A stretch of DNA of 39,128 nt from a virus (lineage: Duplodnaviria; Caudoviricetes), in IMG/VR virus record IMGVR_UViG_3300038393_001279, positions 1-39,128 of that record, one strand, 5' to 3'. A program made the translations under genes and the position numbers. Of this stretch, positions 23,052 through 27,701 are shown in pieces. Numbering within the stretch: position 1 is the stretch's first letter; each line of letters begins with the position of its first letter. The notes under the pieces were generated by a model. It saw only the letters and a program-made list of their open reading frames with translations, was not told where the DNA came from and did not search any database.

Positions 23052-23080
23052 ATAATACTTAAGTTACTTAAGCATTGCAA
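23052..23080 (-). promoter_or_regulatory. Sigma70-like promoter with palindromic operator TTAAGT-W-ACTTAA in its spacer
   Basis: TTGCAA-N17-TATTAT on the minus strand; operator at 23059-23071. Confidence 0.75.
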
Positions 23081-23083
23081 TAG

Positions 23084-23104
23084 AAAAATGGCCCCGAGGG
23101 GCCA
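23084..23104 (-). terminator. Rho-independent terminator closing the primase/anti-defence transcription unit
   Basis: Minus strand reads TGGCCC-CTCG-GGGCCA followed by TTTTT. Confidence 0.6.
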
Positions 23105-23122: not shown

Positions 23123-23326
23123 TTATGCCGGTTTCGTGGCGTCGAGGGCGGCGCGGACAAAACAGTCTTTCGCCTCGAGCAGCTTGCGCATGCCGGCCGA
23201 TTTCTCGGGACCGTCGGGGAGTTGCGCCTCGAGCTGGTCGGCCAGGTCGCCAATCGGTTTGCTCACGGCCTGGAGGTGGGCCGGGAGGTGGCCGTATGCG
23301 AAAAACTTAATCGTGGTGGTGGGCAT
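23123..23326 (-). CDS. Small conserved phage protein; possible Acb2/Tad1-like helical-hairpin sponge
   Basis: FFAYGHLPAHLQAVSKP...LPDGPEKSAGMRKLLEAKDCFVRAA with an AAGGA RBS. The function is inferred. Confidence 0.6.
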   Translation of the reverse strand: MPTTTIKFFAYGHLPAHLQAVSKPIGDLADQLEAQLPDGPEKSAGMRKLLEAKDCFVRAALDATKPA

Positions 23327-23335
23327 GGTCGTTCC

Positions 23336-24118
23336 TTAAAATGCGGCGATTCGGTCGGCCAGCACGCCGGCCAGCTTTTCCATAAGCTCGAGTTGGTCGG
23401 ACAGTCGCTCCTGCTCCGCCGCCGGCAGGGTGCCGAAAATCTCGCCCTGGATAAACGGGCTCAGGCGGGAAATGCGCTGTACCAGGTCGGCACGTTCGGC
23501 GCACACGCGGTCCTGGAACGTCAGTTCCGGCGCCTCGTGGAATTGCGGCTCCTGGCCGGTGAACACGGATAGCGCGAGCAACAGGCCGTTGGCCATGCCG
23601 CGCATGTATTCGCCCTGGTCGACGGTGCCCAGGGAGGATTGGACGGCCACCAGGTCGCGCAGCTTGCCGACTTTCTCGTCCTCGGTCGCGGCGCGGAACA
23701 GGCGCTCCGCCAGGAGATAGCCCTCGAGTGGCCAAATCTGGTCCACGGCCGCCTTGTACGCGTACTCGCACCCGATTTGCTGGTCGAAATTCGCGGCACT
23801 CACGGGGCCGTTATTCACGCCCACGACGCAAAAGCCGTTGACCAGTTCCAGACGGCACACGGTCGTGCGCGTGCCCTCCAGGTTGGTGTAAGTCTCGTCC
23901 ACGATGATGGACTGAATGTGTTCTTTCGTGATGCGCGGCGCGGCCGGCTTGAGCTCCTCGACGCGCGCCTCGAGCTCGGCGTCGGACAGCGGATCCGCGA
24001 GCGTGGCGCCCTGGTCAACGTCCAGGAACACATGGGCGTTGCCGCCCTCCGTCGGTACGACGTGCGCGGCGCTGGCCAGGGTCGAGGCGATGGCGGCGGC
24101 GATGTTGGTTTTCTGCAT
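23336..24118 (-). CDS. Three-domain putative anti-defence sponge: Gp49/Sf6-gene66 (Acb4-like) + unknown domain + crAss001_48 (Sequestin-like)
   Basis: Start ATG 24118 with a GAGGA RBS, 260 aa. Domain 1: PRIT...I...T.C.L.L.NGF.V.G....VS..NFD..IG...A......IW.LEGYLL. Domain 3: FQDRV..E..DL...I..L..FI....F..L...EQ..L..Q...M......L..RI..F. Confidence 0.75.
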   Translation of the reverse strand: MQKTNIAAAIASTLASAAHVVPTEGGNAHVFLDVDQGATLADPLSDAELEARVEELKPAAPRITKEHIQSIIVDETYTNLEGTRTTVCRLELVNGFCVVGVNNGPVSAANFDQQIGCEYAYKAAVDQIWPLEGYLLAERLFRAATEDEKVGKLRDLVAVQSSLGTVDQGEYMRGMANGLLLALSVFTGQEPQFHEAPELTFQDRVCAERADLVQRISRLSPFIQGEIFGTLPAAEQERLSDQLELMEKLAGVLADRIAAF

Positions 24119-24137
24119 TTCTATGTCCTCTTTCGGG

Positions 24138-26561
24138 TCAGGTTGTAACAGTGTTGAGCAGCGGGGCCATTTGGGCCGCGCTGTAGGCTTTGGCAATCTC
24201 GGCCGGCCCTTGGATCCGGGCGGCCTCGTGGCCAATCTTGACGAATAGCACCGGCTTGCCGCCGTCCGGTGCCACCAGGTTGTTGACGCGGCCGTGTGAG
24301 GCCAGCAATCCGGGGTGCCAGTCGTAGCCGAGGCGGACCAGCATTTCGCGGCGCTTGTTGATCGGGACGGAGCGGGCGCGGCCGTGGTCCTCGAGGAGCT
24401 TTTGCAGGGCCATAGACGAAATCCACCCGCCAGCGAAACCGGGCGCACCCTGCGCGATGGCCTCGAGGATTTCTTGCTCGACGCCGCCCAGGCTGGCCGC
24501 GACGGATTCCTCCGTGCTGGTCGTGACGGGGGCAATGTGCCCGTGCGCCGGGTTGAATTCGTCCGGGATAGGGTAGGTCTGCAAAAATTCGTTGATGATG
24601 GCGTAGCCGCCGCCACGTGCCCACGCGTACAGGCGCGGGAAGTATTGGCCGGACATGCCCCATTCGACCAGATCCTCGGCCGTTTGCTGCGCCGTGAAAA
24701 ACGGTGCGATGCGGCGGTCGTTCTTGCTCTTGCGGTAGCCGTCCTTGTGGTTGCTGTTAATCATGAAATTACAGCACACCTCACGGGAGACTTTTTTCTC
24801 GCCCTTGCCCTGGATCTGTTGCTCCTCGCCGGTAATCATCGGCTTGAGCTCCTCCATTACCTCCTGGCGGCTGTCCGCGACGTAGATGTCCTCCACGCCG
24901 ATGAACACGGTCCCATATTGCCAGTCGTTGAATTTGTCCGCGATGTCGGACGCCTTGGGGAAATACGTGTAGCGCTTGCCGACGGCGAACGCCACGCAGC
25001 GCGTGAGGAACGTTTTGCCGTTGCCCTCCACGCCCTGAATGAACGGCGCCCACTGGAATTTGATTCCCTTGTGCTGGACGATGGCCGCCATGTAGGACAG
25101 CATAATCGTGCGGTCCCGTTGGTCCGGCAGGAGCGCGGCCAGGTGGTTGAGGAATGGCGACACGTCACCTTGCATGCGCGCCGTCTCGACCGGCCACCAG
25201 AGATTGGCCTTTTTCTGGCCGTCGTAGTCGATGATGGCGCCGGGGGTCTTGTCCGGCCGGAAGCACGACGAATCGGCGCGCGGCGAGCGGAACGCCTGCG
25301 ATTGACTGAACGCCTCCCACGGGTCGCGGCTCGAGCGGTTATTGTCGAGGTCCATCATGAACGTGTAGCCGCCGAACATGACGCGGAATTGATCGGGTTT
25401 CAACAGGTAGCCCCCCGGGACCAACACGGCGTGTTTGTCGCACACGTACGAGCACCCATGGAACAGCGTGATTTGCTGCTCCGGGCCCAGGAACGTGGAG
25501 CCGGTCACGAGTTTGGCCATGGGCGCGGCGTCCGTGCTCGAGGAGCTGGCGGCGGGCGTAGGGGCGCTACTCTGGAGCGGCTCGGGGGGCGTGTCCTTTA
25601 AAACCTGGTCGTCCTGCTGCACGGCGACGGCGCCCAGGATGGTGGCGTAGACGTACGACTCGCGCGCCCACTTCTCACGTACCAGGCCGGACTGGAACAT
25701 CAGGCGGCGGATCCGCTCGCAATCCTTGCCGGTCCAGAACGCCAGGTGTTGCGCGAGCGCACGGTCGGCGCGGCTGGCGTCGTACGGGAGCGCGCCGTTA
25801 CCGTCGGGCGGGTACGCCGCGGCCAGGACGTCCACGTCACAGTGCCAGAGGTCCGCGAAGCTGGCCGCGGCGCCGAACGCTGCGCGCGCGCTGGTCGACT
25901 GCATGGCGCGGCGGAGGAGCTGCTCGTCGTCGGTCGGACCGTTCCAGCCGGGCACCGGGCCGGTGGTCCACTCGACGTCCTGGCCGGCGGCCGTCGTCAC
26001 GCGCTTGAGCCATTTTTCCGTGAGGGCGTACAGGCCCGCCGTGTGCTCCGTGGCCACGTCGCCGGTAATGCTCGTGCCGGTCAGGGCCACGAACCGCTTT
26101 TCCGTGTACAGGTCGAAAAGTTTATTCGTGATGTCCTTTTTGCGGCGGTCGGTCGGCGCGGTGCCGGTGCCGAAAAAGTGCAGGCCGCGGCCGGACTGCG
26201 AAATCTCGCACGCGGCGCCAGGCAGCGCGGCGGCCAGTTCCGCAACAATCGGCGTCCAGCGCGGCGGCGAGCCGTCGGCCGGCACCTCGAGGCAGTTGTC
26301 CACGTCGATGAAGAAAAACGGGTCCGCCTCGGTGAACACGAAGCCGACGCAGTAATCAGCGCCCCAGGCCGTGACGATGCGGCACGCCTCCGTGGAGTCC
26401 AGCCAAATGCCGGAGTCGTGGGCGTCGTGCTTTTTGCCCGTGTAGACGTTGAGCGGATATTTGAACGTTTTCCCCGGGTGCTCGGTGTCGGGGACGAGCT
26501 GGCACACGATGAATTGGCGATACCTCGCCATTGCGGCCAGTGCTGGGGGCAGCTGTTGCAT
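24138..26561 (-). CDS. NrS-1-like primase-polymerase fused to an SF3 helicase (DUF5906-like)
   Basis: AEP motifs FIDVD and EISQSGRGLH, helical-bundle motif D.S.AD.AL...LAFWTG.D..RI.RL...SGL.R.KW, and Walker A GVEGNGKT. Confidence 0.9.
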   Translation of the reverse strand: MQQLPPALAAMARYRQFIVCQLVPDTEHPGKTFKYPLNVYTGKKHDAHDSGIWLDSTEACRIVTAWGADYCVGFVFTEADPFFFIDVDNCLEVPADGSPPRWTPIVAELAAALPGAACEISQSGRGLHFFGTGTAPTDRRKKDITNKLFDLYTEKRFVALTGTSITGDVATEHTAGLYALTEKWLKRVTTAAGQDVEWTTGPVPGWNGPTDDEQLLRRAMQSTSARAAFGAAASFADLWHCDVDVLAAAYPPDGNGALPYDASRADRALAQHLAFWTGKDCERIRRLMFQSGLVREKWARESYVYATILGAVAVQQDDQVLKDTPPEPLQSSAPTPAASSSSTDAAPMAKLVTGSTFLGPEQQITLFHGCSYVCDKHAVLVPGGYLLKPDQFRVMFGGYTFMMDLDNNRSSRDPWEAFSQSQAFRSPRADSSCFRPDKTPGAIIDYDGQKKANLWWPVETARMQGDVSPFLNHLAALLPDQRDRTIMLSYMAAIVQHKGIKFQWAPFIQGVEGNGKTFLTRCVAFAVGKRYTYFPKASDIADKFNDWQYGTVFIGVEDIYVADSRQEVMEELKPMITGEEQQIQGKGEKKVSREVCCNFMINSNHKDGYRKSKNDRRIAPFFTAQQTAEDLVEWGMSGQYFPRLYAWARGGGYAIINEFLQTYPIPDEFNPAHGHIAPVTTSTEESVAASLGGVEQEILEAIAQGAPGFAGGWISSMALQKLLEDHGRARSVPINKRREMLVRLGYDWHPGLLASHGRVNNLVAPDGGKPVLFVKIGHEAARIQGPAEIAKAYSAAQMAPLLNTVTT

Positions 26562-26890: not shown

Positions 26891-26924
26891 GTTGATGTTA
26901 GTCAATTCTGACGGACTCGTCAAT
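26891..26924 (-). promoter_or_regulatory. Sigma70-like promoter/operator; inverted copy of 33898-33931
   Basis: TTGACG-N17-TAACAT, containing TGACG-N4-CGTCA and TTGA-N6-TCAA palindromes. 33 of 34 bases match 33898-33931. Confidence 0.8.
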
Positions 26925-27701
26925 CGCTACGCGGCGGCTAACCTCGTGTTCTCGAAGAAACACGTTAAACGCGTAAATCGCCTGCTCGTCCGCCGAGCGC
27001 TCGAACACGGCGGCGCTGTTGTGCGCCTCCACACGGTCGGCTATTACGGCCATTCGTTGCGCCGCGGTCGGCGGGGCGTACATGCCGAATCGGGCGGTTT
27101 GGCTCTGGTTGCGCACGGCGTTGGTGCTATCCGCGCTGGCCAACGGCAAACGCGAAAAGAGGCGGGGGTCGAGCATGCGCAACCCATGGAGCTTGCAAAC
27201 GGGGCGGCCGTGCTCGTCGCATATCGCGTTGAGGGCCTCGCGCATGCGCGCCCACCAAAGGGCGGATCCCGGCGTACGAAAATCGCCGGAGCTCCCAAGC
27301 GCCACCGTGCGCCAGGCGTGCCCGAGTGCGACGAGGCGCTCCACCGGTTCGTGGAGGTGCCACACGGGCACGCCGTCGGCGCGAAGATCCGCCGGCCACT
27401 CCGCGATAAGGGCGTCGTTTTCTTCGGGCGTGCCGCCGATTACGTCGGGGATCAGCGCCCAATCGAAACCCGGGTGCCGGTGCCATTCCCGGACCCATGC
27501 GACATAGCCCGGAACGTCCAGCACGCCGCCTTTGTTCCAGATCGTAAACGCGCCGTTGTCGAGCACGAAGGATTGGCACACCTCCGCGACGACGGCCATG
27601 TCGTCCTGGCGCGGGAACGGCACGAGCGCGTGCCGCCCCGTGAGAAAGCGCGCAACGTCCTGGCGGGATCCGCTCCCAGGGGTTCCGTGGTATGGCTTCA
27701 T
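26898..27701 (-). CDS. TGT-fold DNA guanine transglycosylase (DpdA-like)
   Basis: Motifs in TGT order: LDNGAF (cf. DSGGF), IPDVI, PVWH, ALGSSG, KLHGLRML, SADST. Confidence 0.7.
   Translation of the reverse strand: MKPYHGTPGSGSRQDVARFLTGRHALVPFPRQDDMAVVAEVCQSFVLDNGAFTIWNKGGVLDVPGYVAWVREWHRHPGFDWALIPDVIGGTPEENDALIAEWPADLRADGVPVWHLHEPVERLVALGHAWRTVALGSSGDFRTPGSALWWARMREALNAICDEHGRPVCKLHGLRMLDPRLFSRLPLASADSTNAVRNQSQTARFGMYAPPTAAQRMAVIADRVEAHNSAAVFERSADEQAIYAFNVFLREHEVSRRVAIDESVRID

Follow-up and report, generated by a model that had tools for sequence, protein, structure and literature searches.

A protein that joins an Acb4-family domain and a Sequestin-family domain with an unnamed third domain (domain X) is encoded in the window, i.e., the whole stretch of DNA analysed here, a virus record of 39,128 bp that is complete and carries direct terminal repeats. 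The protein belongs to both the Acb4 and the Sequestin family by profile, with fold or residue support. It probably oligomerises and sequesters cyclic dinucleotides through its Acb4 domain and 3′cADPR through its Sequestin domain. The Acb4-Sequestin pairing by itself adds little; what is new is domain X between them.

The gene (23336..24118, minus strand), delineated by its open reading frame, Pfam, and an AlphaFold2 model, runs from an ATG at 24118 to a stop that ends at 23336 and encodes 260 residues, comprising a leader followed by the Acb4-family domain, domain X, and the Sequestin-family domain. A plus-strand reading of 23336-24118 was ruled out by an internal in-frame stop. A Shine-Dalgarno-like AGAGGA (24126..24131, minus strand) lies 7 nt upstream of the ATG. 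The primase gene sits directly upstream (24138..26561, minus strand; phrog_1829 DNA primase, E 7.5e-123), and the fusion gene starts 20 nt past its stop, in agreement with an earlier reading of this DNA made from its letters alone (the sequence-only reading). A 9-nt gap then separates the fusion gene from a 67-aa gene, termed Y67. The terminator that the same reading had placed at the end of this unit was recovered in part: a terminator-like hairpin with a T-run (23079..23104, minus strand; hairpin 23104-23089) closes the primase-fusion-Y67 run, but it lies after Y67 and is a consensus match of a kind that is no more frequent in the region than in shuffled sequence (12 sites vs 11.8).

The window has a GC content of 66.6% and carries portal, terminase, capsid, and DNA polymerase genes. 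Its primase is at most 52% identical to those of the 15 named phages listed. PHROG scans of this 39-kb phage retrieved no RNA polymerase, and as far as scanned the phage is not N4-like. In the AlphaFold2 model of the fusion protein, built from a 29-row alignment, pLDDT stays below 50 over most of residues 1-42, and block means range from 77 to 98 from residue 61 onward, which agrees with the flexible leader and compact modules proposed from the sequence.

Acb4- and Sequestin-family domains in one chain

The Acb4-family domain, a predicted cyclic-dinucleotide sponge, occupies residues 63-139 (23702..23932, minus strand) and was assigned by Pfam, profile, and fold. Pfam places PF13876 at exactly these residues (E 1.4e-22; 80.4 bits against a gathering cut-off of 27), where the sequence-only reading had recognised an N4 Gp49/Sf6 gene 66 pattern at approximately 60-142. 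A single-sequence search of the PDB with the whole 260-aa protein gave no match, but a profile search matched the Acb4 structure 9e4w (E 2.3e-6). The same structure was the first match of the model in two fold searches (Foldseek; VIA-align Z 9.5, rmsd 1.9, 72 residues), and the predicted domain displays a three-stranded sheet flanked by helices, as in 9e4w.

The Sequestin-family domain (residues 201-260; 23339..23518, minus strand) is a helical hairpin and a predicted 3′cADPR sponge, assigned by Pfam, pocket residues, and conservation. PF21825 matches residues 200-258 (E 1.8e-14; 53.8 bits against a gathering cut-off of 24.8), bearing out the crAss001_48/T4 Y16Q-like hairpin read at approximately 199-260. 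The SequestinB pocket residues R7/E11/Q45/R59 align without gaps to R204/E208/Q242/R256, and 27 of the 29 proteins aligned retain each of the four. Counted by hand against the supplement row, SequestinB and the window domain share 22 of 60 residues. The domain thus shares with SequestinA/B and the 64-aa T4 protein (PF21825) the helical hairpin, the four named pocket residues, and the SequestinB spacing; it differs in being the C-terminal domain of a fusion and in carrying Leu at position 249, where Tyr is found in 23 of 29 aligned rows. No Sequestin structure appeared among the solved-structure matches, the hairpin matching generic coiled coils only. A proposed check of both flanking domains by HMM and structure was borne out for the two Pfam assignments and the 9e4w fold, but not for the fold of the Sequestin hairpin. 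Five relatives (P0019, P0021, P0025, P0026, and P0033) have, in place of the C-terminal Sequestin, a domain that finishes with a GDY...Y.NP..VFE.KY motif and that in P0025 gives a weak PGDYG match.

The family links that the sequence-only reading had given for these domains agree with print: PF13876 has been defined as the Acb4 family (Chang et al., bioRxiv 10.1101/2024.12.30.630793) and PF21825 as Sequestin (Tal et al., 10.1101/2025.07.12.664507). In the latter study, 10 of 13 Sequestins inhibited type I Thoeris, none inhibited the other four systems, and the E, the Q, and the second R of the pocket were essential. Tal et al. also list 91 Pfam cases of Acb4-PF21825 fusions. One such fusion, Ab09 gp59, binds gcADPR tightly and 3′3′-cGAMP more weakly, strongly blocks type I Thoeris and partly blocks type II-A CBASS, forms a tetramer, and triggers Panoptes (10.64898/2026.06.04.730250). 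The window protein has the same two Pfam domains in one chain as gp59 and the YH6 fusion (10.1101/2025.07.12.664507), in the domain order of gp59, and shares with both an accessory slot adjoining the primase gene. Whereas gp59 has 147 residues (Acb4 1-83, Sequestin 84-147) and, as described, lacks a third domain, the window protein possesses an additional 57-aa domain X and a 42-aa leader. It also differs from the gp59 and YH6 fusions in its host genome, a 39-kb phage with terminal repeats and no RNA polymerase in PHROG scans.

Homologs were collected from 4,229 candidates of 143-455 aa, with domains assigned by our own profiles. Among the 56 retained, 21 display the Acb4+X+Sequestin arrangement (one being a fragment identical to the window protein) and nine Acb4+Sequestin; the rest comprise three Acb4+X, 20 Acb4-only, two X-only, and one Sequestin-only protein. 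A three-domain relative that is 69% identical occupies two rows of the Sequestin table of Tal et al., the accessible text of which makes no mention of its middle domain. Within close relatives, identity is 48% over the Sequestin domain vs 70% over domain X. Two sister phages, whose primases are 84% and 89% identical to that of the window, keep the fusion after the primase; the gene before the fusion is Y67 in one and a Tad2-like gene (PF11195, E 1.8e-25) in the other. The slot is thus occupied by sponge-type genes that vary between phages. In a sister phage, a gene with a PAPS-reductase domain follows directly after the fusion (L246:4218-4994).

Acb4 domains form tetramers with four pockets, and Sequestin domains form antiparallel dimers with two. 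By analogy with these relatives, the Acb4-family domain would sequester cyclic dinucleotides, such that CBASS effectors stay off, and the Sequestin-family domain would sequester 3′cADPR, such that ThsA of type I Thoeris stays off; the likely cost would be the tripping of Panoptes/PanDA decoy systems. Domain X, continuing the last Acb4 helix in the model, would most likely be a third accessory module carried along by fusion. On this account the window protein most likely works like Ab09 gp59. Four parts of this account come from the analysis itself: the identities of the domains, the match to the Acb4 fold, the pocket residues of the Sequestin domain, and the position in a sponge-rich slot after the primase. 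Oligomeric states, pockets, and gp59 binding come from tested relatives, and we infer from them the same action by the window protein during infection. The suggestion that one polypeptide could act against both CBASS and Thoeris is thus likely right, having been demonstrated for Ab09 gp59 with type I Thoeris, although as a concept the dual sponge is already published. His-ADPR and type II Thoeris, also proposed as targets, are unlikely: none of the 13 Sequestins inhibited type II Thoeris, and the main text on gp59 reports no inhibition of it, although the legend of Extended Data Fig. 10 of the same preprint says otherwise (10.64898/2026.06.04.730250).

Domain X and its possible roles

Domain X (residues 144-200; 23519..23689, minus strand) was delimited from stand-alone ORFs, a profile, and the model. 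It is a predicted helical hairpin marked by Q160, G164, Y171-M-R-G-M-A-N-G178, and P191, with a near-invariant YMxGxANG motif. That it is an independent domain, as the division into three modules implied, follows from its occurrence alone in 5 of the first 12 loci, as ORFs of 53-87 aa; when it is modelled by itself, the prediction (pLDDT 95) is a hairpin of two helices followed by an extended tail. In the AlphaFold2 model of the full protein, residues 113-160 form one long helix that runs from the Acb4 domain into X.

A 12-row profile retrieved 2,177 cluster representatives at E ≤0.001, 840 of them at 1e-10, among 1.84 billion. Short X proteins had escaped a word-indexed search altogether, which is a sensitivity artefact given the 2,177 found by profile. 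The best 150 of the 2,177 were analysed, 146 of them new; with two of the 12 seed rows taken from the fused clade, these best hits lean toward the seed. The X alignment excludes one locus, L012, whose match was judged to be due to chance. Across 148 domain rows, G174, N177, and G178 are each conserved in 100%, Y171 and M172 each in 99%, G164 in 97%, and Q160 in 95%. The window copy carries T165 at a position occupied by Asn in 93% of the family, and contains four K/R vs nine D/E. Among the best 150 of 2,177, 59 of 146 representatives are no longer than 90 aa, and two proteins contain X as a tandem duplicate. Among named phages, X occurs for example in gp34.22 of SPO1 and the orthologous proteins (19 Bacillus phage records), in MazG-like proteins from Brevundimonas phages (five records, one checked), and in the stand-alone gp53 of Octadecabacter virus DB2; the eight matches in GTDB genomes are all MAGs.

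Library searches returned no named family for X. Pfam gave no match, and only PHROG 23796, of unknown function, was hit; NCBIfam and PDB profiles gave nothing significant, and the ESM Atlas gave unnamed clusters only (best feature score 0.85). Fold searches returned a generic hairpin at Z ≤5.6, and BFVD gave no match at E ≤0.001; such weak matching does not amount to a new fold. When compared with the sponges Acb2, Tad1, Tad2, Lockin, and TadIV-1, X displayed no significant Pfam or PDB profile match, the best fold match again having Z 5.6. Lockin, being mostly beta, was ruled out by secondary structure, and a relationship of X to Y67 was looked for and rejected, none being found. A 2026 review recognises seven sponge families (PMC13712596), and X matched none of those with a Pfam model or a solved structure in the libraries searched. 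In the literature covered, which was largely open-access, we found neither X nor gp34.22 described, and the accessible text of PMC13243611 and PMC13728456 does not describe X either. In the supplements of the three papers searched, the motif occurred only inside two rows of the Sequestin table.

In SPO1 gp34.22 (PHROG 23796), X makes up part of the C-terminal half (tblastn, 43% to a stand-alone X). No sponge domain is attached to it, and no function was found in print; gp34.22 is listed among the SPO1 proteins detected in infected lysate, in figure text that does not identify the individual list (Fig. S2 of Chang et al., 10.1101/2024.12.30.630793). Just upstream of one stand-alone X gene, a long run of a six-base repeat can be read as Ser-Arg/Ser-Trp or Gly-Arg repeats (L009:2638-2950).

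Partners of X were surveyed in 146 representatives and 66 loci (L013 and L245, of the fusion's own clade, left out), which gave 197 non-redundant proteins. An extra segment of at least 45 aa is present in 69 of these and absent in 128. Five of the 197 carry an Acb4, Sequestin, or Acb2 domain fused to X, in the orders Acb4-X, Acb4-X-Sequestin, Sequestin-X, and X-Acb2, and a Tad2-like match in a sixth fell below the cut-off (E 0.039). The differing orders suggest that X was fused on more than one occasion. With strong support for just 5 of 171 branches, the X tree resolves little, and how many of the fusions were independent is judged from domain order only. A MazG-like domain is shared by nine of the 197 and stands on either side of X in several unrelated phages (L015, L202, L213, L215, L227, L231, and L026:1709-2911). 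Conversely, X occurs in none of 80 metagenomic and 2 of 51 viral Acb4 loci.

Two accounts of X go beyond a passenger of the fusion. In the first, X would be a new sponge family for a signal missed by the flanking domains, such as a newer Thoeris signal, cCMP/cUMP, dITP, or (p)ppGpp, and one chain would block three pathways; we regard this as possible on a tentative footing. Sequestin was itself uncovered by examining Pfam families fused to known sponges (Tal et al., 10.1101/2025.07.12.664507), and the fusion of X to Acb4, Sequestin, Acb2, and, weakly, a Tad2-like domain follows the same logic. That search for fusion partners was bound to miss X, for which there is no Pfam model. The small size of X, its frequent stand-alone and occasional tandem occurrence, and its near-invariant polar/Gly motif point the same way, as does its commonest partner: the MazG-like domain also acts on nucleotides, and the phage MazG-like Atd1 depletes ppGpp and counters TIR-STING (10.1101/2022.06.09.495361). 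Against a third sponge stand the low share of sponge fusions and the poorly resolved tree, as well as the absence of any sponge Pfam from 111 genes flanking X in 62 loci (ATG-start ORFs only; four duplicates, L013, and L245 dropped). Furthermore, SPO1L4 has an X gene and is still blocked by a 3′cADPR-based type V Thoeris (10.64898/2025.12.03.692087), and the top cGAMP match in SPO1 lysates was gp1.3, an Acb4, not gp34.22 (10.1101/2024.12.30.630793).

In the second account, X would be a promiscuous oligomerisation or spacer module of small phage accessory proteins that links the Acb4 tetramer with the Sequestin dimer and has no ligand of its own. A simple helical hairpin that is continuous in the model with the last Acb4 helix, together with the great variety of X partners, would suit such a role. 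So would the Gly-x-x-x-Gly spacing at G174 and G178, a spacing typical of helix packing. However, X usually acts alone, its near-invariant Gln, Asn, Tyr, and Met exceed the needs of a spacer, and Acb4-Sequestin fusions such as gp59 are reported to function without it.

Neither role is favoured strongly. Binding of a nucleotide signal by X and a ligand-free scaffold are about equally likely, each less likely than not, and the remaining probability falls to other roles, e.g., binding of a host protein. Our best guess, offered with low confidence, is that X may be a homo-oligomeric nucleotide binder whose pocket would be formed by the conserved Q160-Y171 loop and the GxANG helix. The better conservation of X than of Sequestin in close relatives favours a role for X; T165 and the excess of D/E over K/R in the window copy, like the scarcity of X in Acb4 loci, count against it. 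Of the three putative immune-signal sponges read in one chain, the Acb4-like and Sequestin-like ones are supported by family membership; for X, support for a putative sponge comes entirely from its fusion partners. That X could found a phage anti-immunity family not described before and directed at a signal that known sponges do not cover, and the window protein be a three-pathway sponge, is a somewhat improbable extension. If it were true, X and Y67 would point to one or two signals, and defence systems, without a matched inhibitor, and a positive result for X would add a sponge fold that is new and perhaps an immune signal that is new as well. X is testable at once because the family is large, the motif sharp, stand-alone members of 53-90 aa exist, and SPO1 has a copy.

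The Acb4 ligand and the N-terminal leader

For the preferred reading, in which both flanking domains act as sponges, the ligand of the Acb4 half calls for separate treatment. When compared with SPO1 gp1.3 (9e4w, PF13876), the window domain has the same fold at approximately 24% identity, a one-residue insertion in the pocket loop, and a place within a fusion. Contacts were mapped by hand through the profile alignment, with K81 extrapolated two residues past the alignment end. F48, F62, and I66 are kept and K36 corresponds to R84, but E49, Y57, T70, and K81 are changed to C97, V106, Y119, and P130; V56 is changed as well, and N63, a backbone contact, is replaced by D. Since several SPO1 Acb4 contacts differ, the CBASS ligand of the domain is uncertain; other family members also vary at these positions. 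It is unlikely, on balance, that only the Sequestin half is active as a sponge, with an Acb4 domain that binds weakly or has drifted to another ligand such as c-di-AMP. The altered contacts, the weak cGAMP binding of gp59, and the binding of c-di-AMP by N4 Acb4 at 111 nM (10.64898/2026.08.10.743972) speak for this alternative; against it, all eight Acb4 homologs tested bound 3′3′-cGAMP (Chang et al., bioRxiv 10.1101/2024.12.30.630793), and the Acb4-family domain is the best conserved part of the three-domain clade (88% identity). Elsewhere, two proteins (P0027 and P0031) pair Acb4 with PF02026 (RyR).

The N-terminus of the fusion comprises a secretion-signal-like segment (residues 1-20; 24059..24118, minus strand), so called from a basic N-terminus, an uncharged Ala-rich hydrophobic stretch, and an AxA-like site, and a variable linker (residues 21-42; 23993..24058, minus strand) with pLDDT below 50. 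Residues 1-42 average 34% identity in 15 close relatives, with the first 16 residues at 46% vs 28% for the remainder. A home-made signal test was passed by 19 of 20 clade leaders and by none of 29 other homolog hits; its thresholds were set after the leaders had been inspected, and the relatives are not independent. Shuffled leaders pass at 0.4-5% (0.7% for the window leader). The test was also passed by a single one of the 146 X representatives and, among the 34 window genes, by two, namely the fusion and a TetR-like gene. A lipobox-like LAAC is present in the leader of one relative and a twin-Arg-like motif in that of another.

The signal-like leader is a lead, and an odd one for a cytoplasmic sponge, as a functional signal would move the protein away from cytoplasmic signals. 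To our knowledge, all known sponges act on cytoplasmic signals. Export or membrane tethering of the fusion, with a role in the periplasm or membrane such as trapping incoming signals or carrying them out, seems improbable. The pass rate of the clade leaders against other hits and shuffles argues for it, as do the two motifs in relatives, the twin-Arg-like starts of three stand-alone X representatives (P0089, P0149, and P0179, among signal-like N-termini), and an X protein (L244, 825-1133) that lies exactly at the Tat-signal cut-off of TIGR01409. It is opposed by the post hoc and non-independent character of a crude test that also flagged the TetR-like gene, by its near-complete failure among X representatives, by the lack of any match of NCBIfam models to the window protein, and by the cytoplasmic action of known sponges. 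In the literature covered, the only match on exported sponges was a general review. The leader nevertheless poses a separate, cheap question, namely whether sponges can be exported; a sponge taken outside the cytoplasm would be the boldest extension of the three-pathway proposal.

Y67 and other neighbouring genes

The next gene, Y67 (23123..23326, minus strand; 67 aa), belongs to a widespread unnamed family and is a candidate anti-defence partner, as judged from phage records and Sequestin fusions. Matches were found in 349 of 50,697 phage records. In 7 of 80 loci a single protein joins Y67 and Sequestin, with an Acb4 gene following in five of the seven. The Y67 motif has 22 occurrences in the Sequestin table of Tal et al. 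and is fused once to a Tad1 homolog in the table of Hadary et al. (PMC12393519). Seven Y67 members, predicted as hexamers (one as dimer/hexamer), have been screened, with no collapse in any of the five systems where transformation worked, as far as the accessible text reports (Tal et al., 10.1101/2025.07.12.664507). Y67 is thus a recognised anti-defence candidate with negative results so far. The window copy did not match the Acb2/Tad1 hairpin PF24729, which gave weak matches to 7 of 25 Y67 members (best E 0.019), and the Y67 profile did not match an Acb2-bearing protein. At two loci (L113:2406-3263 and L117:2400-3293), Acb4 domains behind an N-terminal hydrophobic, membrane-spanning-looking stretch adjoin Y67-Sequestin fusions.

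Just upstream of the TetR-like gene and the primase, a 267-aa gene (26898-27701, minus strand) matches phrog_887 queuine tRNA-ribosyltransferase (E 2e-68) and possibly encodes a DNA base-modification enzyme. On the other side, a sigma-70-like promoter (23052-23080, minus strand) stands directly behind the terminator-like hairpin and ahead of small unannotated genes from 23001 downward, among which there could be further host-takeover genes.
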